A stretch of 64,000 nt of DNA. Source: an uncultured Myxococcales bacterium. Lineage in GTDB: Bacteria; Myxococcota_A; Polyangia; GCA-2747355; CAZCFB01. The stretch covers positions 818 to 64,817 of the forward strand of contig CAZEFW010000002.1 in assembly GCA_964511535.1 (NCBI GenBank). The letters run 5' to 3'. Of this stretch, positions 5,264-37,063 are shown one piece after another (within the stretch, counting starts at the first letter, position 1; every line of letters begins with the position of its first letter). Made by a program: the position numbers and the translations under genes. The notes beneath the pieces are model-generated. The model worked only from the letters and a program-made list of their open reading frames with translations. It was not told where the DNA came from and made no database searches.

Positions 5264-7255
<1,992 letters not shown>

Positions 7256-20792: not shown

Positions 20793-20799
20793 CCACGAC

Positions 20800-21420: not shown

Positions 21421-21503
21421 CCCGGTCGCGCTGGTCACACCCCGCCAGGCGGATCCGGGCCTGTCCTGTCCTCGAGCGCGCGCGGCGTGTGCGCTGAACC
21501 GGT

Positions 21504-22418
21504 TCAATCGTCGGTTTTCAGGTTCAGGCTTTGCTCGGGATAGAGCTCCTCCACGCATTCCGGGCAGATGCCGTGGCTGAACTCGGCCTCGGAGTGGTGG
21601 GAGATGTACTGCTCCACCTGATTCCAGAGCCCGTCGTCGTCGCGGATCTTCTTGCACTTGCAGCAGATCGGCAGCAGGCCTCGCAGCGCCGTGATCTCCT
21701 GCCGGGACTCCTCCAGCCGGCTCACCGTCTGCTCCAGCTCATCGTTCAGCCGGGTCAGCTCGAGGTTGTGGGCGTAGGAGGCGCGCCGGTCACGGTTCAG
21801 CGCGTTGAGCAGCGCCATCCCCAGCCCGTTGGCCAGCATGAAGTACAGGAAGAACCGCACCGTCTCCACGGCCTCGATGGGCTGCGTCCAGGCGCGGAAA
21901 GTGATGAACGCCGTGGGGAAAGCCACCCCCGCGATCACGGTGAGCACGAACCGCTGGTTGATGAAGAGGTAGAAGCCGAAGGTCACCAGCAGCACGTTGA
22001 ACATGTTGTGAGTGAAGGTGAGCTGGTTGATGTGGCCCACCCGGATCAAGGCCGCGGAGATGAGCACCTGGGTCAGCACCGTCAGCAGGTAGAAGCCGCG
22101 GAAGAACTCCCGCGCGCGCTTGATGTAAATCGCAGAGCCCACCAGGAACACGCAGGTGAGCAGGCGGATGACGTTGGTCTCGATGATCACTTCGCGGGGC
22201 CTGCCGCTGAGCAGGTCCACCGCCACGAAGGCGAGGAAGATCAGCCCGCCCACCAGCATGGCGTTGGAGGGGCTGCGCTTGATCTCGGTCCAGTTGTCCC
22301 GGATGAAGCTGCGCTCGAGCTGCGGGTCGCGGAACTCGCCGGTCAGGCGCCTGAGCGCGCCGGAGCGCTGCGCTCGGTCGGAACGCTGCCAGTCTTCGCT
22401 GTCGCCTACGGACGCCAC
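21504..22418 (-). CDS. multi-TM sensor-like membrane protein with C-terminal Cys/His zinc-ribbon-like domain
   Basis: Six or seven hydrophobic helices and a coiled-coil. The C-terminus reads LPICCKCKKIRDDDGLWNQVEQYISHHSEAEFSHGICPECV. Confidence 0.5.
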   Translation of the reverse strand: MASVGDSEDWQRSDRAQRSGALRRLTGEFRDPQLERSFIRDNWTEIKRSPSNAMLVGGLIFLAFVAVDLLSGRPREVIIETNVIRLLTCVFLVGSAIYIKRAREFFRGFYLLTVLTQVLISAALIRVGHINQLTFTHNMFNVLLVTFGFYLFINQRFVLTVIAGVAFPTAFITFRAWTQPIEAVETVRFFLYFMLANGLGMALLNALNRDRRASYAHNLELTRLNDELEQTVSRLEESRQEITALRGLLPICCKCKKIRDDDGLWNQVEQYISHHSEAEFSHGICPECVEELYPEQSLNLKTDD

Positions 22419-22480
22419 GCCCTGGGCCCTTCGCGGCTGCCGCCGCGGTCAATCAGTTTGCTGTCTGTTTCGCAGAACCC

Positions 22481-23761
22481 CTACTGGGCGGGGATCGTAG
22501 CATAGACCACCGAGGGCTTGGTGCTCACCTTCTCGGCCATGGCCTTGCCCTTGGGGTCGTAGACGCCGCCGCCCGTGCCCGGCGAGTGGGTGGTGTTGGC
22601 CACCACGGCGTAGACGCCGTACTTGGCCGCGTAGCGCTTGTACCAGTTGGTGGACCCGGAGACGGTCCAGTAGGAGGAGATGGCCACCATGCGCGCGCCC
22701 AGCTGGTTGGCCAGCTTGCTCAGCAGGGTGGACGAGCCGTAGATGTCGGCGCAGATCAGGATCCCCACCTTGCCTGCGGGCGTGTCGAAGGTGGTGACCT
22801 TGTTCCCGGGGGTCAGGCGCTTGGTCTCCGAGCCGAACAGGTTGAACTTGTTGTGCACCGCCGCCACCTTGCCGGCGGGCGTGAAGGCCACCACCGTGTT
22901 GTGGTAGCGGTGGCCCGAGGACTTGGAGCCCGACGCCGTGGCCAGGTCGAAGGTGAGGTACACGCCGTGCTTGCGGGCCAGGGCGGAGAAGGTGCCCACC
23001 AGGCCGTCGGCGCTGGACGGGGTGCTGCCCACGGCGGGGGCGCGCTCGTAGTACTTCTGATCGCCGCCCAGGGCGTACTCGGGCAGCACCACCAGGCTGG
23101 CGCCGGCGGACGCGGCCTGGGCCGTGAGCGCGGACAGGGCGCAGACATTGGGCGTGGCGCTGGCGGCGCAGGATGAGCTCACCGAGGCGGCGTTGCCCGT
23201 GCCGTACTGCACGGCCGCGACCTTGAAGCCGGAGGTGGGCTTGGTGGTGGTGCCGGGGCCAGCGCTGGAGGTCGACTGGGCCTTGCAGGTCAGGCTCACG
23301 CGGTAGCTGCCGGTGGCCTGCCACTGAACGGAGTAGACCCCCAACAGGTACGCCTTGCCCGCCTCGCCGGAGAAGGAGAGGGAGACGCTGGCGCCGCTAT
23401 CGATGCGGCGCGAGGTGACCACCTTGCCGCTGGCTTTCTCGAACACCGCGGCGGCGGCGCCGGCGGACGCGGCGTGGGTGCCGCTGAAGCGGACGCTGTA
23501 GCTGGTGCGAGCGGAGGGGGCGGCGAGGCTGAACAGGTGGGCGCTGTCGTAGCCCGAGAACGCGCCGCTGGTGGGATACGAGCAGGACAGCGCGCGGCCG
23601 GTGTCCACCAGCCATGAGGGCAGATCGGCCTTGCCCTTGATGTGGGTCGGGGCCGCGCGGCCCTCGCCGAGATCGCCCTCGGGGCCGGGCCCGCAGGCGA
23701 GCATGAACAGGCCGAAGATCAGGGTCAAGCTGGTGTATGTCCGACGGATCCTGGAATCCAT
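22481..23761 (-). CDS. secreted lipoprotein with carbon-nitrogen hydrolase (nitrilase-superfamily) domain
   Basis: AAAGGAG RBS, signal LIFGLFMLACG. Catalytic triad context is VLPEYA (Glu), a Lys region, and ILICADI (Cys). The N-terminal domain is pre-peptidase-like. Confidence 0.7.
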   Translation of the reverse strand: MDSRIRRTYTSLTLIFGLFMLACGPGPEGDLGEGRAAPTHIKGKADLPSWLVDTGRALSCSYPTSGAFSGYDSAHLFSLAAPSARTSYSVRFSGTHAASAGAAAAVFEKASGKVVTSRRIDSGASVSLSFSGEAGKAYLLGVYSVQWQATGSYRVSLTCKAQSTSSAGPGTTTKPTSGFKVAAVQYGTGNAASVSSSCAASATPNVCALSALTAQAASAGASLVVLPEYALGGDQKYYERAPAVGSTPSSADGLVGTFSALARKHGVYLTFDLATASGSKSSGHRYHNTVVAFTPAGKVAAVHNKFNLFGSETKRLTPGNKVTTFDTPAGKVGILICADIYGSSTLLSKLANQLGARMVAISSYWTVSGSTNWYKRYAAKYGVYAVVANTTHSPGTGGGVYDPKGKAMAEKVSTKPSVVYATIPAQ

Positions 23762-23843
23762 TTGGCTCCTTTCTGTGACGGTCTGAAGCAGAAATTTGTA
23801 GCCGAGAGGGCGGGGGGCTGGCCACCTTTTTTTACGCCCTGCG

Positions 23844-24989
23844 TCAATTGCTGTGGAGGACCAGCGCGTTGGCCTCCCAGGGCCCAGGCGGCTCCAGGCC
23901 GTCCACGAGCCTTTGCAGCACCGCGCGGGGGACGCTCGCCTCGCCCCGGGCGGCGTTTCGGCGCAGCAGCTCGGCGTGGGGGGTCTCCACGTAGACCAGG
24001 GTGACATGGGCCCCGTAGCGGCGGAACAGGCGCACCAGCCTCGTCCGCATGGAGCGGGTGGTGTTGGTGGCGTTCCAGACAAGCGGCTCGCCGCGGGCCA
24101 GCAGGGGCCGGGCCTCGGCGCGGGCGGCCTGGGCCACGCGCCCCTGGTTGCCGTCGGGGGCCACGGCAAGCCGGCGACGGATCCGGTCCAGCGAGATCAC
24201 GGGGTGGTCCGCCGCGTTGGCGCGCACCCAGGTGTCCTTGCCCGCGCCGGGCAGCCCGCACATCAGCAGCACCCGGGAACCTGCAGGCTCGGGCAGGGGG
24301 ACGTCCGGGCTGCTCAGCCCATCGCAGAGGTAGCGATGTCGCGTCTCGCCCGACGGGTAGCAGCGCGGCGCGTCGAGGCAGCCCAGCTCCTGGCACTGGG
24401 CCTCCAGCAGCTCCACGCGCTCGAGCAGCTCGTCGAGGTCATCCGATTCGCGCCCCAGCATGTCGGCGCGGCCGAGCAGGCAGAACCAGCGTCCGGGGCA
24501 CAGGGCGGTGGCGCGCAGCACGGCGCGCACGGGGTCCTTCCGCCGGAGGAAGGACAGCACGATGCCGTGGTGCCGGATCAGCGACACCACCTGCTCGCGC
24601 CGCGCGAGGGAGGGCGCCGGGAGCGGGCCCTCGGCGCGGTAGAGCAGGCGGCGGGCCATGGTGGCGCCGCGCGGGCCGTGGCCGCGGGTGCGGAGGCGGC
24701 CGTCCTCCTGTCGGGTGGTGGCCGGCTTGCCGATGTCGTGCAGCAAGGCCGCGCAGAGCAGGACCGACCGGTCGCTGGTGTCCAGCGCGCGCCAGCCCGG
24801 GTCGGCCGCCAGGGCGGCCACCACGGCCCGGGTGTGGGTCAACACGTCCCCCTCGGGGTGGTAGATCGGGTCCTGAGCGCAGCGGGCCAGCGGTTCGAGC
24901 GCGGACTGAAACGGCGCGGCCAGGGCGTCCCAGTCCAGGGTCCACCCCGGCGGCTCCGGCAACCCCGGCAGGGTCCACTCAGGGGCCAT
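23844..24989 (-). CDS. HD-phosphohydrolase / P-loop polynucleotide kinase fusion (HD-Pnk-like RNA/DNA end-healing enzyme)
   Basis: The N-terminus has CCA-enzyme-type HD motifs (YHPEGDVLTHT, LLHDIGKP). The C-terminus has Walker A LLMCGLPGAGKDTW and a Pnk/AAA_33-like kinase fold. The start is set at an internal Met 5 nt after the ligase stop; an alternative start is at 25040. Confidence 0.7.
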   Translation of the reverse strand: MAPEWTLPGLPEPPGWTLDWDALAAPFQSALEPLARCAQDPIYHPEGDVLTHTRAVVAALAADPGWRALDTSDRSVLLCAALLHDIGKPATTRQEDGRLRTRGHGPRGATMARRLLYRAEGPLPAPSLARREQVVSLIRHHGIVLSFLRRKDPVRAVLRATALCPGRWFCLLGRADMLGRESDDLDELLERVELLEAQCQELGCLDAPRCYPSGETRHRYLCDGLSSPDVPLPEPAGSRVLLMCGLPGAGKDTWVRANAADHPVISLDRIRRRLAVAPDGNQGRVAQAARAEARPLLARGEPLVWNATNTTRSMRTRLVRLFRRYGAHVTLVYVETPHAELLRRNAARGEASVPRAVLQRLVDGLEPPGPWEANALVLHSN

Positions 24990-25800
24990 GGCTGCCCTCG
25001 GGCCCGTGGTCACCCGGCGCGAAGATGTCCACGTCATCACGCAGCTGGTTCGGGATGATGGGGCGGCGCTGCCAGTGGCCCTCCGCCCTGGCCACCGCGC
25101 TCAGGAAGCCGTGCCGGACGAACTTGTACCGTGCGGTCACCTCGCCTCCCTCCTCCACCTTGATGTACAGCCCCTCCATCAGCGTGGTGGGGTCCGACTC
25201 GCTCAGTGCGCGCGCCGGATCCAGCCCCAGCGCCTCGGCCGAGGCCCGCAGCCGCTCGGTGTGCCCCTCGGCGATGAACGCCGACGGGCCGAGCAGGTCG
25301 GTGAGCTGCTCCAGCGACGCGAGCGGGCCCTCGTGCAGCACCCGCACCGGCGACAGCGGCACCCTGGCCAGGCGACGGGCGCGGGTGGGCGTGTCGAGGA
25401 ACGCCCGGTCCTGCCGGTCGTACAGGTCGAACTCCATGAAGAGGTGGGGCAGGCGATCGTAGAACACCGTGTGCCGCGCGTGGAGCCACTCGCCGAACAG
25501 CACGTACCGGCGGCCCAGGGCCTCGCGCAGTGAGCCCTCGTGTGCAGCGGCCCAGCGCTTGAACAGGTCGAAGTGCCGCTCCCGGCCGCCGCCGGTGAGG
25601 TAGTGCCCGCGGCTCTGCAGGCGAAGCTCACCGTCGGGGCCGAAGGAGACGCCCGCGTTGGCGCCGTCCATCTTCTCCTCCACCACCAGGTGCCGGCCGG
25701 CCAGGGCGGCGAAGGGCACCGCCTGAAGGTCCTCGTCGCCCGGCTGCAGGCGCGAGCCCTGCACATGGTGGGTGCGGGGGTATTTGAAGATCGGCTCCAT
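24979..25800 (-). CDS. ATP-dependent RNA ligase (KxDG nucleotidyltransferase, DraRnl/Rnl5-like)
   Basis: Motif I VEEKMDGANAGVSF (lysine-adenylate KxDG), motif III VLFGEW, motif IV EGLYIKVE, motif V YKFVR. Preferred start is MEPIFKYPRTHH, 4 nt after the methyltransferase stop. Confidence 0.7.
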   Translation of the reverse strand: MEPIFKYPRTHHVQGSRLQPGDEDLQAVPFAALAGRHLVVEEKMDGANAGVSFGPDGELRLQSRGHYLTGGGRERHFDLFKRWAAAHEGSLREALGRRYVLFGEWLHARHTVFYDRLPHLFMEFDLYDRQDRAFLDTPTRARRLARVPLSPVRVLHEGPLASLEQLTDLLGPSAFIAEGHTERLRASAEALGLDPARALSESDPTTLMEGLYIKVEEGGEVTARYKFVRHGFLSAVARAEGHWQRRPIIPNQLRDDVDIFAPGDHGPEGSHGP

Positions 25801-25804
25801 CTCG

Positions 25805-26410
25805 TCAGGGTGTCGCCACCATGGCCAGGGCGATGGTGTGGTTGAGCACCGCATCCATCTTGACCCGCGCGGCGCCGGCGCGCAGCAACAGGCGCTCCAG
25901 GGCGCCGCCGGCCAGCAGGCTCACATGCTCCGGGTTGTCGTCGGGCTTGCTCGGCACCGAGGCGATGACGAACCGGCGCGCGACCCGCATCGCCTCGGCC
26001 GCGGCCGGGGCCGGGTCGCGCTGGTGCTCCAGCACCTCCAGGGCGAGCACCCCGTCGAAGCTGCGGTCGGCGAAGGGCAGCGCGCCCAGGTCCCCGCGCG
26101 CGGCGGTCAGCTGCTGGACGCCGCCGCGGGCCACCGCCGCCGCCCGCGCCGTGGACGACGCGGAGCGGTCCAGGGCGGTCACCGGCACCGCCGGCAGCGC
26201 GTCCAGCAGCGGCCACAGGCCCGCGCCGCGGCCAGGCCCGAGGTCGAGCAGGTCGCCCGGCTGCAGCGCCCGGAGCATGCCGAGCACGCGCCGCACCCGC
26301 GGCAACCCCCCGGTGCGCTTGAACGGGTGCATGCGCAGCTGGCCCGGCGGCAGCCCCGCGCCGCGTCGGTACGCCTCGGCCAGGCGCAGGTGGTGGGTCG
26401 TGTCATCCAT
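25805..26410 (-). CDS. class I SAM-dependent methyltransferase (small, Hen1-C-terminal-like size)
   Basis: Motif I LLDLGPGRGAG, acidic motif II VTALD, motif IV FDGVLALEVLEH. ATG at 26410; the track used an upstream TTG at 26428. Confidence 0.65.
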   Translation of the reverse strand: MDDTTHHLRLAEAYRRGAGLPPGQLRMHPFKRTGGLPRVRRVLGMLRALQPGDLLDLGPGRGAGLWPLLDALPAVPVTALDRSASSTARAAAVARGGVQQLTAARGDLGALPFADRSFDGVLALEVLEHQRDPAPAAAEAMRVARRFVIASVPSKPDDNPEHVSLLAGGALERLLLRAGAARVKMDAVLNHTIALAMVATP

Positions 26411-26424
26411 GACGGGGCCCGGGA

Positions 26425-29079
26425 TCAATCCACGGTGATGCTCTTGGAGACGTTCTTCGGCACGTCCGGGTGCACGCCGTGGTCCTTGACGCCGAGGCGG
26501 TCGAGGTAGGCTGCCTTGCGCAGGCTCATCTCCAGGGCCAGCCGTTGCAGCACCACCGTGGCGGAGAAGCAGGCCATGAGCGTGTCGTTGGTGCGCGGCA
26601 GCTGGATGTAGACGGCGCGGTACTCGGGGCTGCCCGCGGGGGCCTTGGTGGCGGCCTGGCGCAGGGCGGGGTGCTCCTCGGCGATGACCACCGTGTTGGC
26701 GCCGCGGATCTTGTGGGTGTTGATCTGGGACACGGTGAGCTTCACGTCCCGCTCGTGGGCGCCGGTGATGTAGATCAGCGGGTACTGGCCGTCCATCACC
26801 GACAGCAGGTCGGTGCGGTCCACCACCTCGTCGAACAGCGCGTGCTCCTGGGCGTCGAGGGAGAAGTCTGCCGAGGCCGGGGCGAAGGGCGCGTCGGCCA
26901 CTGCCTGCACCAGGCGGCCGAGGCTGGCGCCGCCGGCGCCCTGCTCCGCCCCGCGGCGCACCAGCTCGTCGGCGGCCTTGCCCAGTCGCGACAGCAGCGC
27001 CTCGACCTCCAGCGGGCCGAGCAGAGTGTTGAAGCCGAGGATCGTGTTGGGCCCGTGCTTGAACTCGGACCCCTCGAACCCCTCGGTGTGGTTGAGCACC
27101 ACCTCCCGCACCTTGAGCGCCCCCTCCTTGGCCACGGACGTGAGCCGGGTGGCCATGATATGGATGCTCGGCGTCAGGTACAGCATGCGCGCCGCCTCCT
27201 CCACGTCGGCCGCGGTGGCTGCCACGGTCTCGCGGATCAGCGCCGGGATGGTGGGCAGCTTCTCCCGCCGCAGGGCCAGCTCCGGGCCGAGCTCCTCGGC
27301 GCGGCCCGGAGGCATGGCGCCGTCGCTCAGCCGCCGCTCGCCCAGGTGCAGGGCGAGCAGGTAGAAGAGCATCATCTGGTTGATGAAGCTCTTGGTGGCC
27401 GGCACCGCGATCTCCGGGCCGCAGCGCAGCGGGATCACCAGGTGGCTCTTCTCCTGGGCCAGCGTGGAGTTGACGTTGTTGACCAGCGCCACCCGGCCGA
27501 TGTCACGGCCGCTGGCGATGACGTCGTCCAGCACGTCGATCAGGTCCTTGGTCTCGCCGCTCTGGCTCACGGCGATGAACAGGTCGCCGTCTCTGATGCA
27601 GCGGGACACCTGGCCGCGGAACTCCCCCGGCAGCAGCGGCGTCAGGTCGGTGTGGGCCAGCTCGTTGAAGAACAGCGCGCCCGCCTTGGCCGCGTGGTAC
27701 GAGCTGCCGCAGCAGGTGACGTAGATGCGCCCGCCCCGGCGGATGGTCTGCAGGCACAGGTCGCCGAAGGCGCCGATGGCCGCGGCGTACTCCTCCACCT
27801 CCTGGCGCTCCAGCAGGGCGTCGAGCAGCAGCACGGCGCGCCTGTCGTGGACGCCGCGGGCCATGGGCAGCAGGTCAGCGAAGAAGCCGGCCTCCGCCGA
27901 GGCCATGCCCTCGTCCAGGCGCTCCGGCCGGGCCTCGTCCGCCGCGTGGTCCTGCATCTGCCCGGTCAGGGCGCGCACCGGGGCCAGGTCCGCCAGCTCG
28001 TGAAAGCAACGCTGGATGTCGTCGTCATCGTACTGGTCGCGCAGCCTGTCCAGGGCGGCGCGGATGGCCTGCAGGTCTTCAGCCGTGAGGGCCTCCAGCT
28101 GCGGGCGCAGGCGCGCCAGCCCGTCGCTGCCGCCGCAGAAGATGCGCGTCACCGCGCGGCAGGTATGCTCCTGGGCGCTGATCTCCTGGTCCATGAAGGT
28201 CTCGAACGGGGGGATCAGGCCGGTGTCCTTGGCGCGCAGGCGGCTGCGCCGCGGGCCGCGCTCCAGCGGCTCGCCGGCCTCGAGCTGCTCCACCCCGGAT
28301 GGCCCCTCCCGGCGCAGGTCCTGCACCGCGTACAGCTGGTAGCCCTCGGGGGTGTACTCCACCAGCTCCCCCTGACGCAGGGGCACCACCACCCGGGTCA
28401 TCTTCAGGATGCTCGACAGGTCGGACGAGGCGATGGAGAACGGCCCGCCGGGACCTCCCTTGCCGAGGCCGAAGTAGAGGCTGGAGCCCTGCTTGACCGC
28501 CCAGACCACGCGGCTCACCGGGTCAACGATGACCGCCGCGTAGGACCCCTGGAGCCGCGCGGCAGCGGCGACCCACGCCCGGCGCATGCACGCGCGTCGG
28601 GAGTCCGGCTCAAGCTGCTGCTTTTCGCCCAGCGCCGACAGCTCGCGGTTGAAGTAGTGCTCCACCGTGTGCACCACCATCTCCCCGTCGTTGTCCGACA
28701 GGACCTGGTGTCCCTCGTCGGTGAGCCACGCCTTGAGCTGGTCGCAGTTGGTGACGTTGCCGTTGTGCGCGCCGTAGAGGGTGAACCCCTTGCACCGCAC
28801 CAGGTGGGGCTGGGCGTTGACGTCGTTGACGGCGCCGAAGGTGGCCCATCGCACCTGGCCGCAGAAGATGGACCCGGCCATCTGCACCACGCCGAGCTGG
28901 TGCACCATGACCGACGGCGCCCCCACCCCCTTGGCCAGGCTCACCTGCTCGCCCTCGCCCTGGATCGCGGCGCCCGTGGAGTCGTAGCCGCGGTACTCCA
29001 GGGTCTTGAGCAGCTCGGCCGCCACCTGTCCCATGTCCTGCCGGTGGCGCTGAAAGGTCAGCCCGATGACGCCGCACAT
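26425..29079 (-). CDS. GlmS-like glutamine amidotransferase (Ntn class II) with two SIS domains, 884 aa with large insertions
   Basis: N-terminal MCGVIG nucleophile. FMDQEISAQEHTCRAV matches the GlmS linker. SIS motifs are CCGSSYHAAKAG and VSQSGETKDLIDVL, then HTEGFEGSEFKHGP, and a C-terminal KSITVD as in GlmS KSVTVE. Canonical GlmS is about 610 aa. Confidence 0.7.
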   Translation of the reverse strand: MCGVIGLTFQRHRQDMGQVAAELLKTLEYRGYDSTGAAIQGEGEQVSLAKGVGAPSVMVHQLGVVQMAGSIFCGQVRWATFGAVNDVNAQPHLVRCKGFTLYGAHNGNVTNCDQLKAWLTDEGHQVLSDNDGEMVVHTVEHYFNRELSALGEKQQLEPDSRRACMRRAWVAAAARLQGSYAAVIVDPVSRVVWAVKQGSSLYFGLGKGGPGGPFSIASSDLSSILKMTRVVVPLRQGELVEYTPEGYQLYAVQDLRREGPSGVEQLEAGEPLERGPRRSRLRAKDTGLIPPFETFMDQEISAQEHTCRAVTRIFCGGSDGLARLRPQLEALTAEDLQAIRAALDRLRDQYDDDDIQRCFHELADLAPVRALTGQMQDHAADEARPERLDEGMASAEAGFFADLLPMARGVHDRRAVLLLDALLERQEVEEYAAAIGAFGDLCLQTIRRGGRIYVTCCGSSYHAAKAGALFFNELAHTDLTPLLPGEFRGQVSRCIRDGDLFIAVSQSGETKDLIDVLDDVIASGRDIGRVALVNNVNSTLAQEKSHLVIPLRCGPEIAVPATKSFINQMMLFYLLALHLGERRLSDGAMPPGRAEELGPELALRREKLPTIPALIRETVAATAADVEEAARMLYLTPSIHIMATRLTSVAKEGALKVREVVLNHTEGFEGSEFKHGPNTILGFNTLLGPLEVEALLSRLGKAADELVRRGAEQGAGGASLGRLVQAVADAPFAPASADFSLDAQEHALFDEVVDRTDLLSVMDGQYPLIYITGAHERDVKLTVSQINTHKIRGANTVVIAEEHPALRQAATKAPAGSPEYRAVYIQLPRTNDTLMACFSATVVLQRLALEMSLRKAAYLDRLGVKDHGVHPDVPKNVSKSITVD

Positions 29080-29176
29080 GATCGATCTCCCGAGGTCGTT
29101 CGACGGGCATGGTACCCCGGAACGAAGTCAGCTCACGGGGCAAAGATCGCCGCCCTCTGCGGCGGCGCGCGCGTGA

Positions 29177-30823
29177 TCAATCGGGCAGCTCGGTTGCTTC
29201 CTTGACCTCCTCCCAGCTCAGGCCGTGGCGGGCCAGGTACTTGCGCAGGCGGTCCGCGTCGTTGCGGGTTCGCCGCCGGGTGCGGCTGACGTCGAACAGC
29301 GCCCGACCCGCGGCGGACAGCGACGGCGCGGCGGCGCAGGCCCGCGCGACCTCGGCCAGCTGGGGCCGGTCGAAGCGATCCAGGGCGGCCAGCCGGTCCG
29401 GGCCCAGCAGGCGGAGCAGCAGCGCCTCCTCTCCGCGGCCTGCGCCGCCCCTGCCCCTGGACCAGCTCCGGCGCAGCCGGGCGATCTCGCCGTCCACCAC
29501 CTCCTCGGTGATGCGCCCCCGCGGGCAGAGGGTGGCCATGCGGGTCACCGCGCCGATCAGGTCGCGGAAGTTGCCGGACCATGTCGCCTGGTCCGAGCAG
29601 GCGAAGGCCAGGAACCGGTCTCGCGCCTCGCGGTTGAAGCTCACCGCGCGCGAGGTGCGGGCCGCCACCTGCTCCAGCTCATGATCCAGGTTGGGGGCGA
29701 TATCCTCGGGCCGCTGTCGCAGGCCGGGCAGCGCGAAGGTCCACAGATCGATGCGCGCCAGCAGGTCCTCGCGGAAGCGGCCGCGCGCCACCGCCCGGGA
29801 CAGGTCGCGGTTGGTGCCGCAGATGAGCTGGAAGTCGCTCGTCACCTCGCCCTGGTCCGGATCGGCCCCCATGGGCAGGAACATCCCCTCCTCGATGGCG
29901 TGCAGCAACATCGCCTGCTCGTCCAGGCCCAGCTCGCCCACCTCGTCCAGGAAGAGCAGCCCCTGGTGGGCCGCCTGCAGCAGCCCGGCGCGGTGGGTCG
30001 TGGCGCCGGTGAACGCGCCCCGGCGGTGGCCGAACAGGGTGGACAGGGCCATGTCGCCGCGCAGGGTGGCGCAGTTGACCTCCACCAGGCGGCCGGTGAG
30101 GTGGCCGCGCAGGCGCTTGAGCTGGTAGATGCGGCGGGCCAGCCGGGTCTTGCCGGCGCCGGTGGGCCCGGTGAGCAGGATCGGCTCCCGGGAGCGGATG
30201 GCCACGCGCTCGATCTGGTCCACCAGGTCGTTGAATGCGCGGTTGCGGGTCTCGATGCCCCCCTTGAGGAACGCCACGTCATCGTCCGCGTCGCGGGCGA
30301 AGCGCTGGGCCAGCAGGTCGTAGCGCGACAGGTCGAGGTCGATGACCGCGTGGCGCCCCGCGGGATCGTTGTTCCGGCGGCCCGGGGCGGGGCTGGTCTG
30401 AAGCAGCTTGCCGGGCAGGTGCCGGGACTCGGTGAGCAGGAAGAGACAGATCTGGGCCACGTGGGTGCCCGTAGTGATGTGAACCAGCAGCTCGTGGGTC
30501 TCCTGGTTGAGCGACAGCCCGCGGGAAAAGTCGTACAGCGTGGCGTAGACCTCCTCGAAGTCCCAGGGGTCGGTCAGGTCCACCGGGTGCAGCGTCACCT
30601 CGGTCTCCGGAGATACGGAGCGGATGTCATCGGCCACCGTGGCGGCCAGGCGGCGAAACGGGCGCTGGTGGATCAGCTCGTAGCGGTGGACCAGCAGGTC
30701 CTCCTGCATGCATACGGCCACCGAGGGGCGCCACTGCTCCCATCGCGTGGCCTCCGCGCCGCGGTCCAGCACCGGTCCCAGCATGCCGACCACCACCGTA
30801 TGCGGCTCGATTCGTTGGGACAT
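29177..30823 (-). CDS. rtcR: sigma54-dependent transcriptional activator RtcR (CARF N-domain + AAA+)
   Basis: Central AAA+ domain with LTGPTGAGKTRLARRIY, GAFTGA and FLDEVGELGLD. About 190 aa of N-terminal CARF-like domain; 548 aa overall, comparable to E. coli RtcR. Located between the two repair modules. Confidence 0.8.
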   Translation of the reverse strand: MSQRIEPHTVVVGMLGPVLDRGAEATRWEQWRPSVAVCMQEDLLVHRYELIHQRPFRRLAATVADDIRSVSPETEVTLHPVDLTDPWDFEEVYATLYDFSRGLSLNQETHELLVHITTGTHVAQICLFLLTESRHLPGKLLQTSPAPGRRNNDPAGRHAVIDLDLSRYDLLAQRFARDADDDVAFLKGGIETRNRAFNDLVDQIERVAIRSREPILLTGPTGAGKTRLARRIYQLKRLRGHLTGRLVEVNCATLRGDMALSTLFGHRRGAFTGATTHRAGLLQAAHQGLLFLDEVGELGLDEQAMLLHAIEEGMFLPMGADPDQGEVTSDFQLICGTNRDLSRAVARGRFREDLLARIDLWTFALPGLRQRPEDIAPNLDHELEQVAARTSRAVSFNREARDRFLAFACSDQATWSGNFRDLIGAVTRMATLCPRGRITEEVVDGEIARLRRSWSRGRGGAGRGEEALLLRLLGPDRLAALDRFDRPQLAEVARACAAAPSLSAAGRALFDVSRTRRRTRNDADRLRKYLARHGLSWEEVKEATELPD

Positions 30824-30840
30824 GGGTCTTATCCTACGGG

Positions 30841-30880
30841 ATAGGTTGATATAAATCTATATACGATGTTTGTCGGAGCC
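30841..30880. promoter_or_regulatory. AT-rich island (probable enhancer/IHF region and rtcR promoter) between rtcR start and sigma54 promoter
   Basis: ataggttgatataaatctatatacgatgtttgtc is about 75% AT in a ~70% GC background. It lies 60-100 nt upstream of the sigma54 -24/-12 element. Confidence 0.45.
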
Positions 30881-30938
30881 AGGTCGGGTGCCCATGTCCT
30901 GACAGCATAATCATTGGGTTTTTCTTTCAGGCCCGGTC

Positions 30939-30954
30939 TGGCACATCCCCTGCA
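30939..30954 (+). promoter_or_regulatory. sigma54 (-24/-12) promoter for the SPFH-rtcA-rtcB operon
   Basis: TGGCACatcccctGCA has GG and GC separated by exactly 10 nt. Consensus is TGGCACG-N4-TTGCA. It is divergent from rtcR. Confidence 0.65.
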
Positions 30955-31092
30955 AACTTCAATGGATATCGCCTCCGGGCCAGCGGCGCGGTGGAGCCGG
31001 GCAAAGGCTGTTGCTCCATCGTGTACCGAACATGGCGTCGAACCGGGTGCGGTGAAAGCGGCAGGGCGGGCAAAGCCGTCCTGCCCGGTCAA

Positions 31093-31109
31093 GCAGGTTC
31101 GACTCCTGC
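31093..31109 (+). ncRNA. tRNA T-arm mimic (GCAGG-TTCGACT-CCTGC) within the ~480-nt sigma54 leader; candidate Y-RNA/YrlA-like structured RNA module
   Basis: A perfect 5-bp stem with a 7-nt TΨC-like loop TTCGACT. No canonical anticodon or acceptor arms are foldable by eye, so it is not a tRNA gene. Confidence 0.25.
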
Positions 31110-31436
31110 ACTGCAATGGGATGCAGACCCTGGATCACGTCCCGGGGCGAGCGGTTCCCTTGTGGAGGTCGGGCCCACGCGGCAGGGCAGCACCGGAGGA
31201 TCGGGGCTGCAGGCCAGGTGGGCCAGCGTCGCGAGGCGCCAGCAGCGCGCGGATTGAAGCGGCTGCCATCAACCTGCCAGGAGGTTCTGGCAGGGGAGGC
31301 GGTGGCTCGAGCAGCGCTCCGCGCCGGGCAGCGTGACCCCCATGAGGGCGGCGTTGGTACCGGGACACTCGAACCACAGCCCAGCGGGGCTGAAGCGATA
31401 AACGCAACACCAGGACTCCAACGAAAGGAGGACAAC

Positions 31437-32564
31437 ATGTTCAAGCGAGTTCACCTGCGCAGCTGGGAGCGCGGCTTTTTGTTCCAGGACGGCGAGTTTC
31501 GCCGGGTGCTGGAGCCGGGAACGCACTGGCTGTTCGACCCGCTGTTTCGGGCGCGCGTGGACCGCATGTCCATGCGCCAGACCGTGTCGTCGCACGGCGA
31601 GCTTGACCTGTTTGCCCACCAGCTGGAGGGCCGGGAGGATCTGCGCGTGCTGCACCTGACCGACGGCGAGCGCGCCCTGGTGTGGGAGGACGGCCGGTTC
31701 GTGGCCGCGCTGGAGCCGGGCCGGCACCTGATCTGGACCGCCCTGCACGAGGTGCGGGTGGAGGTGGCGCGTCCCGGGGCGGCGACCGAGGAGGGCGCGG
31801 CCGCGGGAGCGCGCTTCGAGCACCCGGAGCTGGCGGCCATCCTGGCGTCTGGACAGGCGCAGGAGGCGCTGGGGGTGCACAATGTGCCGGAGCATTTCTC
31901 GGCGGTGGCCTTCCTGGACGGCAAGTCCATGGGCGTGCTGGGGCAGGGCCGCCACGCGTTCTGGCAGGGGCTGGGGCAGGTGCAGCTGCTGCTGGTGGAC
32001 CGGCGCGAGCTGGTGCTGGACGTTGGGGGGCAGGAGCTGATGACCCGCGACAAGGTGACCCTGCGGCTGAACCTGACCGCCACGATTCGCGTGACCGATC
32101 CGAGCCGGGCCACCGCCGAGGTGAGCGACTTCCGTCAGGCGCTGTACCGCGACGCGCAGCTGGTGCTGCGGGCTGCGGTGGGCGCGCGGGAGCTGGACGA
32201 GCTGCTGGCGGACAAGGACGCCCTGGCGCAGGACATGACCGGGGCGCTGGCGACGCGGGCCGCACAGTACGGCGTGAAGGTGGTGACCCTGGGGATCAAG
32301 GATGTGATCCTGCCGGGTGAGATGAAGGAGCTGATGAACCGCGTCATCGAGGCGCGCAAGGCGGCAGAGGCGGCGGTGATCACCCGGCGCGAGGAGACCG
32401 CTGCCATGCGCAGCCAGGCCAACACGGCCAGGCTGCTGGAGAAGAACGAGGCGCTGATGCGCATGCGCGAGCTGGAGCTGCTGGAGAAGCTGTTCTCCAA
32501 CTCCAACCTGAACGTGGTGCTGGGCGAAAAGGGCCTGGCCGACCGCGTCTTCAACCTGCTGTAG
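31437..32564 (+). CDS. SPFH/band-7 (stomatin/prohibitin-like) domain protein, first gene of rtc operon
   Basis: AAAGGAGG RBS. SPFH core LDGKSMGVLGQGRHAFW...DKVTLRLNLTATIRVTDP, followed by a coiled-coil tail. Confidence 0.7.
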   Translation: MFKRVHLRSWERGFLFQDGEFRRVLEPGTHWLFDPLFRARVDRMSMRQTVSSHGELDLFAHQLEGREDLRVLHLTDGERALVWEDGRFVAALEPGRHLIWTALHEVRVEVARPGAATEEGAAAGARFEHPELAAILASGQAQEALGVHNVPEHFSAVAFLDGKSMGVLGQGRHAFWQGLGQVQLLLVDRRELVLDVGGQELMTRDKVTLRLNLTATIRVTDPSRATAEVSDFRQALYRDAQLVLRAAVGARELDELLADKDALAQDMTGALATRAAQYGVKVVTLGIKDVILPGEMKELMNRVIEARKAAEAAVITRREETAAMRSQANTARLLEKNEALMRMRELELLEKLFSNSNLNVVLGEKGLADRVFNLL

Positions 32565-32577
32565 GGTGGAGGAGATC

Positions 32578-33594
32578 ATGATCCGCATAGATGGTTCCAT
32601 GGGAGAGGGGGGCGGCCAGGTGCTGCGCACCTCCCTCGGCCTGGCGCTGGTCACGGGACAGCCGGTGCGGCTGGAGCAGATCCGCGCGGGGCGGCCGCGG
32701 CCGGGGCTCATGCGCCAGCACCTGACGGCGGCGCGGGCGGCGGCGGAGGTGGGCGGCGGGCGACTGCAGGGCGATGCCATCGGCTCGGGGGAGTTGACCT
32801 TCAACCCGGGGCGCGTTCAGCCGGGGCGCTACCGGTTCGCCGTGGGCACGGCGGGCAGCGCCACGCTGGTGCTGCAGACGGTCTTGCCGGCGCTGCTGAC
32901 GGCGGACGGGCCGTCGGAGCTGGAGCTGGAGGGGGGGACGCACAACGCCTGGGCGCCGCCGTTCGACTTCCTGCAGCGGGTGTTTCTGCCCCTGGCGGGG
33001 CGCATGGGCGCGCGGGTGGAGGTGAAGCTGGAGCGCCCCGGGTTCTACCCGGCGGGCGGGGGCCTGTTCACGGCCCGGGTGACGCCGGTGGAGGCGTGGT
33101 CGCGGCTGGAGCTGATGGAGCGTGGCTCGCTGGTGTCGCGGCGGGTGCGGGCGCTGGTGGCGCGGCTGCCGGCCCACATCGGCCACCGCGAGCTGGCCGT
33201 GATGCAGGACCTGCTAGGCCTGCCCGGCGACGAGCTGGAGGTGCAGGAGATGGAGGACTCGCGCGGCCCGGGCAACATGGTCTCGCTGGAGCTGGAGTAC
33301 GACCGGGTCACCGAGCTGTTCTGCGGCTTCGGCGAGAAGGGCAAGCCGGCCGAGCGGGTGGCCCGCGAGGTGGTCAAGCAGGTCAAGCGGTACATGGCCT
33401 GCTCGGCGCCGGTGGGGCGGCACCTGGCGGATCAGCTGCTGGTGCCCATGGCCCTGGCCGGGGGCGGCGTGTTCCGCACCCTGGCGCTGACCCGCCACAC
33501 CACCACCAACATGGAGGTGGTGCGGCGCTTTGTTGAGGTGAACATCACCGCCGAGGAGCGGGCCCACGACGACGTCGTGGTGACCGTGGCCTGA
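32578..33594 (+). CDS. rtcA: RNA 3'-terminal phosphate cyclase RtcA
   Basis: IDGSMGEGGGQVLRTSLGLALVTGQPVRL is the RtcA signature. GGAGGAG RBS. Confidence 0.9.
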   Translation: MIRIDGSMGEGGGQVLRTSLGLALVTGQPVRLEQIRAGRPRPGLMRQHLTAARAAAEVGGGRLQGDAIGSGELTFNPGRVQPGRYRFAVGTAGSATLVLQTVLPALLTADGPSELELEGGTHNAWAPPFDFLQRVFLPLAGRMGARVEVKLERPGFYPAGGGLFTARVTPVEAWSRLELMERGSLVSRRVRALVARLPAHIGHRELAVMQDLLGLPGDELEVQEMEDSRGPGNMVSLELEYDRVTELFCGFGEKGKPAERVAREVVKQVKRYMACSAPVGRHLADQLLVPMALAGGGVFRTLALTRHTTTNMEVVRRFVEVNITAEERAHDDVVVTVA

Positions 33595-33612
33595 CGGCAG
33601 GAGGATATCGAC

Positions 33613-34992
33613 ATGAAGCCGAAGGAGATCATGGCGCTGGGGGTGCCCAAGGGCAAGGCGTGCAAGGCGGTGCTCAAGGCCATGGCCGCGCTGGCCGAGG
33701 TGGGCATCGCGGGGGACGAGCTGCGGCGGGTGCTGGCGGAGATGGCCCGGGACCCGGACGCGTTTCTGGACCACCCCCAGCTGGGGGCGGCGGCGGAGGC
33801 CGTACGCGCCACGCCTGTGTTCACGCCGCGGGACGCGCCCGCGCCGTGGCGTCAGTGGGGCGAGGACCTGGACGACAACGCCATAAAGCAGCTGCACCAG
33901 GCGTGCTCGCTGCCGGTGTCGGTGGCCGGGGCGCTGATGCCCGACGCGCACATGGGCTACGGGCTGCCCATCGGCGGCGTGCTGGCCACCCGGGGGGCGG
34001 TGATCCCGTACGCCGTGGGCATGGACATCGCCTGCCGCATGCGTCTGTCGGTGCTCGACTGGCCGGTGGAGGCGCTGGACCGGCGGCAGGAGCCGCTCAT
34101 CGAGGCGGTGCAGCAGGAGACCCGCTTCGGCGTGGGCGCCAGCTTCAAGGGCGGGACCCGGCGTGACCACGCCGTGATGCAGGAGGACTGGTCGTTCCTG
34201 CCCCTGCTGAAGGCGAACCGGGACCAGGCGTGGGCCCAGCTGGGCAGCTCCGGGTCGGGCAACCACTTCGTGGAGTACGGCGAGCTCACCGTCGACGAGG
34301 CGGACGGGCCGCTGGGCCTGGAGCCCGGGGTCTACCTGGCGCTGCTGTCCCACTCGGGCAGCCGGGGCATGGGCGCCAAGATCGCTGATCACTTCAGCAA
34401 GCTGGCGGTCAAGCGCCACCCGGAGCTGCCGCGGGAGCTGCAGCGGCTGGCGTGGCTCGACCTGGACAGCGAGGACGGCCAGGCCTACTGGGCGGCCATG
34501 GAGCTCATGGGCCGCTACGCCGCGGCAAACCACGAGCTGATCCACCGCCATGTGCTGCAGGCGCTGGGCGCCGAGGCGGTGGCGTCGGTGGAGAACCACC
34601 ACAACTTCGCCTGGCTCGAGGAGCATGGCGGGGAGCAGGTGGTGGTGCACCGTAAGGGCGCCACGCCGGCGGGGGAGGGCGTGCTCGGGGTGATCCCCGG
34701 GTCCATGGGTACGGCGGGGTACGTGGTGCGGGGCTTGGGTGAGCCCGCGTCGCTGAACTCGGCGAGCCACGGCGCGGGGCGGGCCATGAGCCGCAAGGAG
34801 GCCAAGCGGCGGTTCAAGTGGGCCCAGGCGCGCAAGCTCCTGGCCAGCCGCAAGGTGCACCTGATCTCGGGCGGGCTGGACGAGGTGCCCATGGCCTACA
34901 AGAAGATCGAGCAGGTCATGGCGGCCCAGCGCGACCTGGTGCAGCCGGTGGCGCGCTTCGACCCGCGGCTGGTGAAGATGGCCGGGGGGTGA
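33613..34992 (+). CDS. rtcB: RNA-splicing ligase RtcB (3'-phosphate/5'-hydroxyl ligase)
   Basis: SGSGNHFVEYGEL, ENHHNFAW, HGAGRAMSR and C-terminal PVARFDPRLV are conserved RtcB blocks. AGGAGG RBS. Confidence 0.9.
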   Translation: MKPKEIMALGVPKGKACKAVLKAMAALAEVGIAGDELRRVLAEMARDPDAFLDHPQLGAAAEAVRATPVFTPRDAPAPWRQWGEDLDDNAIKQLHQACSLPVSVAGALMPDAHMGYGLPIGGVLATRGAVIPYAVGMDIACRMRLSVLDWPVEALDRRQEPLIEAVQQETRFGVGASFKGGTRRDHAVMQEDWSFLPLLKANRDQAWAQLGSSGSGNHFVEYGELTVDEADGPLGLEPGVYLALLSHSGSRGMGAKIADHFSKLAVKRHPELPRELQRLAWLDLDSEDGQAYWAAMELMGRYAAANHELIHRHVLQALGAEAVASVENHHNFAWLEEHGGEQVVVHRKGATPAGEGVLGVIPGSMGTAGYVVRGLGEPASLNSASHGAGRAMSRKEAKRRFKWAQARKLLASRKVHLISGGLDEVPMAYKKIEQVMAAQRDLVQPVARFDPRLVKMAGG

Positions 34993-35080
34993 TCTTTGCA
35001 CCTCCCCGGATCATGGCGAATGCTTTGGTTTGAAAAAAGGACCTTTGGCAATGGCGCATTGATTCGGGGAGGCGTGGTTC

Positions 35081-36286
35081 ATGACTCGTGGATGGGTAGC
35101 TTTGTGTTGGGCGGTTCTTGTCGTTGGCTGCAGCGACGACGGGGAACCGCTGCTGGATGCGTCGGCGGATGCTTCGCTGGACGCCGGGGTGGATCTTGCC
35201 AGGGACTCCGCGCGGTCTGATGCCGCCCCGGTGGACCAGGCCCTGATGGACGCGGCGGCGCCGGACATGGCCTCGCCGGACATGTCCGCGCCGGATCTGG
35301 CGGCAGCCGATCTGAAGGCGCCGGACCAGAAGGTCCCGGACATGCTGTCGCCGGATCAGCTCGTTCCGGATCAGCTCGTTCTGGATCAGCTCGTTCCGGA
35401 TCAGCTCGTTCCGGATCAGCTCGTTCCGGATCAGGCTGTGCCGGACATGATGGTCCCGGATCAGATGGCGCCCGACATGTCCTCGCCTGCCCCGGACGCC
35501 GGAGGCTCGGGCTACGCGGCCGCCGTTCTGGCGGACAACCCGGAGGCGTACTACCGGCTCAACGAGACGGGCAACCCGGCGCTGTTGAAGGACGCCACCG
35601 GCAACGGCTGGAACATCGGCGCCTCGGGGGCCCATACCGGCGAGATCATCAACAAGCCCAGCTTCAACGTCGCCGGGCTGGTCCCCGGCGATGCCACGAC
35701 GGCCATGGAGCTGGCGGCGCCGGTGAACCAGCATGTGCACCGGGCGCTGGGGCCAGGGCTCCGGCCCACGGGCGCGGCGTCCATCGAGCTGCTGTTCCGA
35801 TTCCCGGGGGCGGTGCCCAAGTCGAGCCACCACGTGATGGCCGCCATCGTGCCCCAGGGCGCCCACAAGAACGGCCGCGGCATCGGGGTGCACTACCACA
35901 CCTCCACGGGCAAGGTTCACATGCGCAAGGGGTACGGCGTGACCTGGGAGACCATCGACTCCGGCACCATGACCTTCAAGGCGGACCAGACCTACCATGT
36001 CGTCGCCACTGTCAGCGCGGCGGGCAGCATGCGGCTGTACATCGACGGCCTCCTGGTGGGCAGCAAGGCCAGCACCCTCAAGCCTGTCTGGAAAGATGGT
36101 TGCTGCTACCCCAGCCCCGGGCAGCTGTTCATCGGCGCCGACAAGGTGGACAGCGGCACTGCGCCCGCGGGGAACAAGCAGAGCGCGGGCAACAAGGGGT
36201 TCTTCACCGGCATCATCGACGAGGTGGCCATCTACGACAAGGCGCTGACCGCCGCCCAGGTCGCCGCGCACCACAAGCAGCTTTGA
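35081..36286 (+). CDS. lipoprotein with low-complexity (PDQLV)n linker and C-terminal LamG/concanavalin-like domain
   Basis: Lipobox VVGCS. LamG-like blocks ELLFRFPG...TYHVVATVSAAGSMRLYIDG...FFTGIIDEVAIYDKAL. Confidence 0.6.
   Translation: MTRGWVALCWAVLVVGCSDDGEPLLDASADASLDAGVDLARDSARSDAAPVDQALMDAAAPDMASPDMSAPDLAAADLKAPDQKVPDMLSPDQLVPDQLVLDQLVPDQLVPDQLVPDQAVPDMMVPDQMAPDMSSPAPDAGGSGYAAAVLADNPEAYYRLNETGNPALLKDATGNGWNIGASGAHTGEIINKPSFNVAGLVPGDATTAMELAAPVNQHVHRALGPGLRPTGAASIELLFRFPGAVPKSSHHVMAAIVPQGAHKNGRGIGVHYHTSTGKVHMRKGYGVTWETIDSGTMTFKADQTYHVVATVSAAGSMRLYIDGLLVGSKASTLKPVWKDGCCYPSPGQLFIGADKVDSGTAPAGNKQSAGNKGFFTGIIDEVAIYDKALTAAQVAAHHKQL
35321..35470 (+). repeat. 15-bp tandem repeat (ccggatcagctcgtt, ~6 perfect/near-perfect units plus diverged flanking copies) inside CDS
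   Basis: Direct reading of 35351-35440. It encodes the (PDQLV)n linker. Confidence 0.8.
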
Positions 36287-36298
36287 CACCGGCCCCCG

Positions 36299-37063
36299 TC
36301 AGGGGGGCGAGGGGGCGCGCTGGCCTTTGGCCCCTGCCGGGGCTGTCTTGTTTGGCCGGCGTTTGCCCCTGGCCTTGAGCCGCTTCGCCGGGGTGACGAG
36401 CCTCAGCACCACCGCCGCGGTGTCGCGGTCGGCGTCGCCGGTGTTCATCACCAGCGCCAGGGTCTGGCCGTCGGGGGACAGCTGCCCTGACTTGAGGGAC
36501 ATCACCGACCAGGAGGGGATGCCGGTGTGGCTGTTGATGGCGGGCCGCTGGCGAAGGACCTGCTGCCGGGTGGCTACCTGGCGCCCTGCGCGCTTGACCT
36601 GCCAGGTGCGCACCACCCGCCTCGACTCCTTGCCGGTCAGCCCGTCGCGATCCGCGGGCAGCTCGGGTCGCGGCCCGCGCTCGCGGAAGGTGACCTCCAG
36701 CTCCTTGATGGCGGACAACGCCTTGCCCGGCCGCGGCCCGTAGCGGCGCAGCAGCTTGCGGCGGCGGCGCTTTCCGGCGGCCTCCGAAACGATGATTTTG
36801 GTCTCTCCGGTGGCCGGGTCCTCCTGGTGCGCCACGACGGTTACGCGCCGGAGCACCTTGCCGCTGCGGGCCGAGTAGACCACCAGCCGTACGTGGCCGC
36901 CGCCGATGTGCCCCCGGGTGAAGCTCTCCTCGTAGACCACGCGGTGGCCGTCGGCCGAGAAGCCGACGACCCTGAACTCCAGCTCGTCGTCATCGTAGGC
37001 GCGGGCGGCGCCCGGGACGAAGAGGGTCAGGGCCAGGGGCAGCCACAGGCGCGCCGATCTCAT
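36299..37063 (-). CDS. secreted hypothetical protein
   Basis: Signal [22 protein letters not shown]. Its start is 30 nt from the divergent 37093 gene. Confidence 0.45.

Follow-up and report, generated by a model that had tools for sequence, protein, structure and literature searches.

Why should two sets of RNA-repair genes lie back to back in one bacterial genome, with a transcriptional activator and a gene for a sugar-phosphate isomerase-like enzyme between them? This question is raised by positions 23844-34992 of a 64-kb stretch of DNA (hereafter the window, meaning the whole stretch analysed) from an uncultured clade of Myxococcota that is known from metagenomes only. On one side of rtcR, the gene for a sigma54-type activator, a divergent sigma54 promoter faces the genes for an SPFH/Band-7 protein, RtcA and RtcB; on the other side, co-directional with rtcR, follow genes for a GlmS-like protein, a small S-adenosylmethionine (SAM) methyltransferase, an ATP-dependent ligase and a fusion of an HD domain with a P-loop kinase (HD-Pnk). 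An earlier sequence-only reading saw in this array a single expanded, RtcR-centred supercluster. The answer that we favour, with moderate confidence, is that two separately evolved RNA-repair modules flank rtcR and a housekeeping-type gene in this clade, and that the two are complementary but separately regulated. What is new in the locus is a lineage-specific combination of known types of RNA-repair module around what is probably a bystander gene.

The methyltransferase, ligase and HD-Pnk genes constitute a mobile three-gene module that is found in many phyla. Database relatives of the ligase at 55-68% identity number more than 7,000 and come from many phyla; 80 species-representative genome loci of the family were sampled and their neighbours scored within 10 kb. 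HD-Pnk lies directly after the ligase in 75 of these loci, and a methyltransferase homologue is situated directly 5' of the ligase in 16, from at least seven phyla (Bacteroidota, Victivallales, Fibrobacterota, Alcaligenaceae, Chloroflexota, Bacillota, Gloeobacteraceae and Actinomycetota are represented). The same triad is present on two further metagenome contigs. A gene for RtcR, RtcB, SPFH or the GlmS-like protein was found within 10 kb of the ligase in none of the 80, and RtcA is nearby in a single one (L014), so that the supercluster is rare. The proposed ‘four-gene cassette’ did not hold up as an evolutionary unit either, the GlmS-like gene having unrelated contexts in 42 loci outside this clade and the other three genes occurring without it in many phyla. 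Elsewhere, the ligase/HD-Pnk pair adjoins genes for Tpt1, RtcA, RlaP, Thg1, an Rnl2-like ligase or a 2H/EEP/PAP fusion; modular RNA-repair neighbourhoods are thus the norm for this pair.

Several loci of the survey have peculiarities of their own. In a Victivallales metagenome-assembled genome (L014, 9280-16272), genes for methyltransferase, ligase, HD-Pnk, Tpt1, RtcA and RlaP stand in a row, directly followed by a Replic_Relax (relaxase-type) gene that is suggestive of a mobile element. In Calothrix sp. PCC 7103 (L022, 7964-15032), the pair is followed by a gene for a 989-aa fusion protein with MJ1316 cyclic-end recognition, EEP phosphatase, 2H (2'-5' RNA ligase family) and poly(A)-polymerase-like domains, and preceded on its 5' side by an IS605 OrfB/TnpB-type gene. 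The cluster of Pseudobacteroides cellulosolvens (L087, 8424-13035) encodes an AAA_33 kinase, a Thg1-like protein, a LigB-type ligase, an Rnl2-like ligase (T4_Rnl2_C) and HD-Pnk, and thus holds two different ATP-dependent ligases. About 100 nt 5' of a Pirellulales ligase gene (L053, 9835-9905), the 18-nt unit GGTCACCTTTGGCAGGAG stands in four tandem copies; an HD-Pnk homologue was not detected in this locus.

The history of the cluster was followed by comparing the lineage of the window (W) with three relatives: A (L170-L172), B (L001) and C (L178). In lineage A the eight-gene layout is complete and follows the order of the window, the gaps being 7, 7, -4 and -1 nt, and the proteins of this lineage are 62-80% identical to those of the window, repair enzymes and GlmS-like protein alike. 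Co-location of the cassette with rtcR, whose absence from related genomes would have told against the sequence-only reading, therefore recurs in a second, diverged lineage. Lineage B is devoid of the three-gene module and has suffered a deletion of the 5' half of the SPFH gene together with the 3' part of the leader ahead of it (L001, 7383-8003). In lineage C (L178, 7646-8320), SPFH and rtcA are gone while the leader stays, and the genes kept are rtcB, rtcR and the GlmS-like gene. Both of these sister lineages show an rtc locus in decay. A search for remnants of the three-gene module in the two, taken to E=5, found none. The junction between rtcR and the GlmS-like gene measures 3-7 nt in the related lineages, compared with 97 nt in the window. 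The tree drawn from pairwise identities, (W,(A,(B,C))), implies one ancestral assembly with subsequent loss of the module in B and C; on parsimony, loss rather than gain is the simplest account.

The same comparison provides what can be said for the view that the juxtaposition is meaningless, namely that a mobile unit and two unrelated genes were inserted 3' of the GlmS-like gene in an ancestor and have not yet been lost in W and A. The 5.0 kb by which the window exceeds lineage B (21422-26425) contains, besides the module, a gene for a CN_hydrolase lipoprotein and a 304-aa open reading frame (ORF); the module is absent without remnants from B and C, and its co-location with the rtc genes is unique among the sampled loci. 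We nevertheless regard this view as unlikely. The W-A divergence of the module genes (62-74%) is similar to that of the rtc genes (63-76%), indicating that they were kept together over a long period, and the ligase/HD-Pnk pair is repeatedly found beside repair genes in other genomes, including RtcA in L014, so that its clustering with such genes is non-random.

The gene content itself is secure. An ORF listing returned the eight ORFs, their coordinates and spacing as the sequence-only reading had given them, and a pattern search returned the promoter. Pfam and NCBIfam profile searches with the ORF translations yielded every expected domain (PF01139, PF01137, PF09414, HD with AAA_33, and GATase_6 with SIS), placing in particular the 24979-25800 protein among the RNA ligases and the 23844-24989 protein among the HD and kinase families. 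Read from the sequence, 14 nt separate the GlmS-like and methyltransferase genes and 4 nt the methyltransferase and ligase genes, and the ligase and HD-Pnk genes overlap by 11 nt; the tight packing of the cassette, with its KxDG ligase and HD-Pnk, is hence borne out by the junctions. None of the eight genes has a further copy elsewhere in the window, and independent metagenome contigs carry the same locus with 100% protein identity. The G+C content of the locus and clade is approximately 70%.

Table 1 Features of the rtc locus and the adjoining ligase module in the window
Feature	Coordinates	Strand	Evidence
HD-Pnk, 381 aa	23844..24989	-	HD 8e-10, AAA_33 7e-28
ATP-dependent ligase, adenylyltransferase domain only, 273 aa	24979..25800	-	PF09414 3e-31
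Compact class-I SAM methyltransferase, 201 aa	25805..26410	-	Methyltransf_11/25/12/23
Long-form GlmS-like amidotransferase/sugar-phosphate isomerase, 884 aa	26425..29079	-	GATase_6 + SIS
rtcR / GlmS-like spacer, 97 nt, GC hairpin	29080..29176	-	sequence read
RtcR, CARF-like N-terminal domain + sigma54 AAA+ activator	29177..30823	-	PF06956, Sigma54_activat, NF038308
Sigma54 -24/-12 promoter, TGGCAC-N5-CTGCA	30939..30954	+	exact pattern match
Structured leader / candidate non-coding RNA	30955..31436	+	fold z-score, conservation, covariation
Soluble SPFH/Band-7 (slipin-family) protein, 375 aa	31437..32564	+	Band_7 8e-31
RtcA, RNA 3'-terminal phosphate cyclase	32566..33594	+	PF01137 2e-79
RtcB, 3'-phosphate/5'-OH RNA ligase, 459 aa	33613..34992	+	PF01139 2e-88

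Two local features of the window may be added. The G+C content rises to 0.73-0.74 at 24001-28000, where the ligase module and the GlmS-like gene are located, from about 0.69 in 20001-24000 and 30001-32000. Just 3' of rtcB, inside a Laminin_G_3 gene, a 15-nt unit CCGGATCAGCTCGTT is repeated in tandem in 5.6 copies with 97% match (35351-35434, within 35336-35464) and would encode a repeated pentapeptide.

The RtcR side of the locus is a known arrangement, to which a conserved RNA, overlooked by the sequence-only reading, has to be added. RtcR is matched by PF06956 (3e-76) and Sigma54_activat (PF00158, 1e-44) and qualifies as the NF038308 equivalog (764.7 bits against a cutoff of 650). Upstream of the SPFH gene, TGGCACATCCCCTGCA is the sole exact match to TGGCAC-N5-YTGCA in the window, and this promoter is kept in lineages A, B and C. 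RtcA exceeds the cutoff of NF003246 (453 against 352 bits); in RtcB, PF01139 spans residues 93-454 and is preceded by an N-terminal extension of about 90 aa. The RtcR domains, the divergent sigma54 promoter and the joint presence of rtcA and rtcB make the locus a member of the Rtc system, and profiles and promoter match together support the divergent rtcR/sigma54-SPFH-rtcA-rtcB unit as it had been described.

The SPFH gene starts at an ATG that follows AAGGAGG and from which homologues of 366-377 aa align over their full length; on these two grounds an alternative start at 31116 was rejected. This leaves a non-coding leader of about 480 nt between promoter and gene. The protein has no hydrophobic segment (maximum KD19 0.94), and a membrane-anchored role of the stomatin/HflK type was rejected for this reason. 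Its residues 1-176 (31437-31970) contain, before the Band_7 domain, a degenerate repeat in three copies, which reads ...DG-x-F/M-x(3)-L-x-x-G-x-H-x-x-W. The presence of SPFH in place of Rsr/Ro60 had been noted as unexplained. The pairing is already published: 10.1101/312249 reports, from Burroughs and Aravind 2016, that RtcB is encoded beside a Band-7 protein and a b7a-tRNA, a predicted tRNA associated with Band-7.

Does RtcR control both sides? The exact promoter pattern has no match on the minus strand 5' of the GlmS-like gene or of the methyltransferase gene in the window, and the region of the ligase module gave no sigma70-like or terminator match of note. The spacer after rtcR can form a hairpin (CGCCGCC-GCAGA-GGGCGGCG) with a poor T tail. 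Since the module is located 3' of rtcR and has no sigma54 promoter of its own, control by RtcR is not indicated; nor is the idea of one activator for both modules, because the lone sigma54 promoter faces the other way. From the layout, transcription of module 2 (the methyltransferase, ligase and HD-Pnk genes) most likely comes from read-through of rtcR and the GlmS-like gene and does not start at the RtcR-dependent promoter.

An integrated RtcR regulon, in which damaged RNA is sensed, both pathways are switched on and the GlmS-like protein is a new component, was the model of the sequence-only reading. It draws on the contiguity of eight genes whose layout is kept in two lineages that are 20-38% apart in protein, on the operon-like gaps of lineage A, and on the consideration that everything downstream of rtcR would follow if this gene were autoregulated. 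The lack of a minus-strand sigma54 promoter speaks against this model, as do the absence of RtcR and RtcB from the neighbourhood of all 80 ligases, the absence of repair neighbours from all 37 metagenome loci and five further loci of GlmS-like genes outside the clade, and the retention of rtcR, the GlmS-like gene and rtcB without the module in B and C. We consider it quite improbable. Equally doubtful to us is a two-tier circuit, in which a constitutive heal-mark-seal module, maybe co-transcribed with rtcR, would deal with basal damage and set the threshold, the sigma54-driven pathway of leader RNA, SPFH, RtcA and RtcB would fire only once this first tier is saturated, and the compact methyltransferase would activate the ligase.

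The GlmS-like gene is the least expected member of the array. Its product aligns to residues 1-224 and 290-542 of E. coli GlmS, and the second SIS domain becomes visible only through the alignment to 290-542. It scores below the NCBIfam cutoffs for glmS (NF001484, 301 against 381; TIGR01135, 274 against 418). The N-terminal Cys1 (MCG), SQSGET, EFKHGP and the KSITVD tail are invariant in 11 members of the family, which has lengths of 840-897 aa and 62-81% identity across Myxococcota; homologues with a named source all belong to this phylum. Long-form GlmS-like proteins with 37-39% identity over the full 884 residues are encoded on other metagenome contigs (L113-L120), suggesting that the insertion-bearing form may not be confined to close relatives (52-81% identity). 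Outside the clade, the neighbours of the gene are unrelated to RNA repair in 42 of 42 loci (37 full-length metagenome loci plus L002-L004, L179 and L180), and the gene of the nearest outgroup, with 70% identity, adjoins those for ArgRS and PheRS. Given these unrelated contexts, the GlmS-like gene is probably a bystander of housekeeping type, with its catalytic signatures intact.

The ligase is a minimal enzyme. It has motifs I, III, IIIa, IV and V and neither an OB nor any other appended domain; with the active-site lysine at residue 43, an N-terminal OB domain is not possible. The lysine lies in the motif EEK43MDGAN, and K43xDGxN, YGEW, EGLYxK and KFVR do not vary among 12 homologues, which come from several phyla. 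An AlphaFold model shows a single 273-aa domain (pLDDT 87) with the RNA-ligase adenylyltransferase fold, whose best structural matches are TbREL1, NgrRnl, Rnl3 and T4 Rnl2 (TM ~0.5, 16% identity), with DNA ligases at E≥9e-4. The family profile matched no PDB sequence at E≤0.01, NgrRnl included. This absence of a profile match, and the TM of ~0.5 at 16% identity to NgrRnl, led us to reject identity with Rnl5/DraRnl. From its operon and the position of its lysine (K43, compared with K40), the ligase is probably of the LigB/DR_B0100 type.

HD-Pnk is predicted to combine an N-terminal HD phosphoesterase with a C-terminal P-loop 5'-OH polynucleotide kinase: HD covers residues 72-159 and AAA_33 residues 257-385 (numbering of the long ORF), and the kinase half resembles the structures of T4 Pnk and PSTK. 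Residues H44, H84-D85, H104, D176, G245-x4-G250-K251, D268 and R271 are at least 95% conserved in 74 homologues. In D. radiodurans, the operon partners of HD-Pnk (DR_B0098) are LigB (DR_B0100) and PARG (DR_B0099), and DraRnl has a separate operon (PMC5397189); the statement that HD-Pnk is co-operonic with DraRnl thus has to be corrected. A further correction concerns the ‘classic’ ligase that seals 3'-OH/5'-P ends, as both characterised ligases linked to HD-Pnk adenylylate themselves and yet ligate nothing in vitro (PMC1997131; PMC6097658).

Least credible among the alternatives is that the ligase/HD-Pnk module mends breaks in DNA or DNA/RNA hybrids rather than in RNA, for although the LigB-PARG-HD-Pnk operon of D. 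radiodurans is induced by ionising radiation (PMC5397189), DRB0098 was first described as a possible DNA strand-break repair kinase (PMC1997131) and the Runella enzyme figures as a ‘DNA/RNA end-healing enzyme’ in a title cited in PMC6097658, the ligase fold is closest to the RNA ligases Rnl2, Rnl5 and Rnl3 (DNA ligases appearing at E≥9e-4 only), the neighbours in other genomes are RNA-specific (Tpt1, RtcA, Thg1, RlaP, 2H phosphoesterase, poly(A)-polymerase-like domain), and a methyltransferase for ribose hydroxyls would make sense on RNA only. On that view, the locus would join an RNA-repair operon to a unit that processes DNA ends.

The methyltransferase had been compared with Hen1 of the bacterial Pnkp/Hen1 systems, and this analogy stands in part. 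The family profile matched the methyltransferase domain of C. thermocellum Hen1 (3jwi/3jwg) at 1e-8 with the longest coverage, 3jwh/3jwj at 6e-6 and 3htx at 1e-4; three generic methyltransferases scored higher, and the Hen1 equivalog model TIGR04074 was missed by far (13.8 bits against a cutoff of 340). The protein is without the N-terminal ligase-activating domain of Hen1, and among named proteins the sugar O-methyltransferase MftM is its best relative. Fifteen members of the family share F30-K31, R38-V39, DxGxGRG, D81, E125xxE128-H129, VPSKxDxNPxH162 and H191. A structure model from the single sequence (pLDDT 42) was unusable. Methylation of a ribose hydroxyl is a reasonable but unproven reading of these motifs and matches.

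The leader that precedes the SPFH gene has been conserved across four related lineages, and its fold has a z-score of -4.3 relative to shuffled controls. The consensus fold has a long stem and two hairpins, the first with TTCGACT as its 7-nt loop, and compensatory changes occur in 8 of its 34 predicted pairs. The T-arm-like hairpin (31093-31109, GCAGG-TTCGACT-CCTGC) and the second hairpin (31111-31126) both show compensatory changes in related lineages. Neither Rfam (E≤1, 22000-37000) nor ARAGORN (whole window) returned a match, so that the leader cannot be assigned to a known RNA family. The T-arm-like hairpin lies ~320-330 nt from the SPFH start, a distance equal to that between tRNA and SPFH gene in Planctomycetota loci, as called by ARAGORN. 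We suggest from these likenesses that the leader is probably the diverged counterpart of b7a-tRNA in this clade.

In those Planctomycetota SPFH loci, ARAGORN placed tRNAs on the same strand at 6611-6684 (L173), 6222-6295 (L175), 6611-6684 (L176), and both 6418-6489 and 6597-6670 (L177); one of the calls is an odd ‘tRNA-His’ with anticodon ATG. RtcB is not encoded nearby in these loci, from which it follows that the pairing of Band-7 with a tRNA-like RNA occurs without RtcB. Pieces of their spacers resemble the leader of the window (GGCGC-CAGCAG, GATACCG and GCTCAAGC...CTCCGC...GCGTGA); when the 3' leader was aligned across phyla, the quality was too low for a structure to be derived. The leader motif GCTCRAGC-N3-GCNCCGC, searched across all loci, gave one added match, in L053, which is inside a coding region and was judged to be due to chance.

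How might the locus work? The enzymatic steps proposed here, and any cross-talk between the modules, are our interpretation. In module 1, RtcR would activate the divergent sigma54 promoter, and with it the leader RNA, SPFH/Band-7, RtcA and RtcB; RtcA would cyclise 3'-P ends, and RtcB would join 2',3'-cyclic-P or 3'-P directly to 5'-OH. In module 2, HD-Pnk would convert cyclic-P/5'-OH into 3'-OH/5'-P ends, the methyltransferase would mark a ribose hydroxyl at the break, and the ligase would seal it, probably only with another protein as partner. The GlmS-like gene would have been caught between two insertions and would not be a component of repair.

Several points weigh against two modules under separate regulation around a bystander. 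Both the co-transcription of module 2 and its independence from RtcR are read from the layout alone, and, with a 97-nt hairpin spacer between rtcR and the GlmS-like gene in the window, there may be a separate, unrecognised promoter. The link between methyltransferase and Hen1 is weak, generic methyltransferases scoring slightly higher. The leader is recognised by neither ARAGORN nor any Rfam model. The GlmS-like gene has been kept between the modules in two lineages, with 7-nt gaps only, and could have been recruited to the same function. For none of the ligases of the LigB type has a substrate been demonstrated (PMC1997131, PMC6097658).

The locus does not overturn current views. If its modules co-operate, the clade would offer a natural test of whether direct sealing by RtcB and heal-and-seal repair by HD-Pnk with an ATP-dependent ligase divide the same broken RNA ends between them or compete for them. 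The widely distributed methyltransferase-ligase-HD-Pnk triad is the more general result, and the SPFH leader could serve to test the Band-7-associated RNA, which still awaits validation.

It remains to set the locus beside the systems it resembles. With the Band-7/RtcB system, as described in 10.1101/312249 and, for the Rtc systems of E. coli and Salmonella, in PMC7790460, the window shares the RtcR equivalog, the divergent sigma54 promoter and the Band-7 gene directly 5' of rtcA and rtcB; the structured RNA before its Band-7 gene, conserved and provided with a T-arm-like hairpin, is the probable equivalent of the b7a-tRNA. Unlike in that system, the leader in the window gives no tRNA call by ARAGORN and is part of a 5' region of ~480 nt, the gene order is SPFH-rtcA-rtcB, and four extra co-directional genes follow rtcR. 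With GlmS, the GlmS-like protein has in common Cys1, the Ntn glutaminase, two SIS domains, SQSGET, E-x-KHGP and the K-S-x-T-V-(D/E) tail; it differs from this enzyme of ~609 aa by insertions of ~170 and ~80 aa.

For module 2, the Pnkp1-Rnl-Hen1 complex is a close parallel in predicted activities, since the operon in the window is predicted to provide the same four (kinase, 2',3'-phosphoesterase, ligase and SAM methyltransferase). Here, however, the phosphoesterase is an HD domain and not a metallophosphoesterase, the methyltransferase is without a ligase-activating domain, and the ligase fold has more in common with Rnl2/Rnl5 than with the Pnkp ligase. The ligase of the Pnkp1-Rnl-Hen1 complex shows no activity unless its methyltransferase partner is present, and a similar need would explain why ligases linked to HD-Pnk fail when tested alone. 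In gene order, the module resembles the LigB-PARG-HD-Pnk operon of Deinococcus and the Runella slithyformis cluster of ligase/HD-Pnk with Tpt1 and a MTase-HIT protein, in which an adenylation-domain-only ligase is likewise encoded directly 5' of HD-Pnk (PMC1997131, PMC5397189, PMC6097658, PMC11833690). The KxDG lysine is near the N-terminus in both DR_B0100 (K40) and the ligase of the window (K43), and in Runella, as in the window, the ligase ORF's 3' end and the start of HD-Pnk overlap and a SAM methyltransferase is encoded nearby. Unlike Deinococcus and Runella, the window has no PARG, Tpt1 or HIT domain, and its methyltransferase is free-standing, directly 5' of the ligase. The triad thereby offers a testable reason for the inert ligases of both organisms, which may depend on a partner protein in the way that Rnl depends on Hen1.

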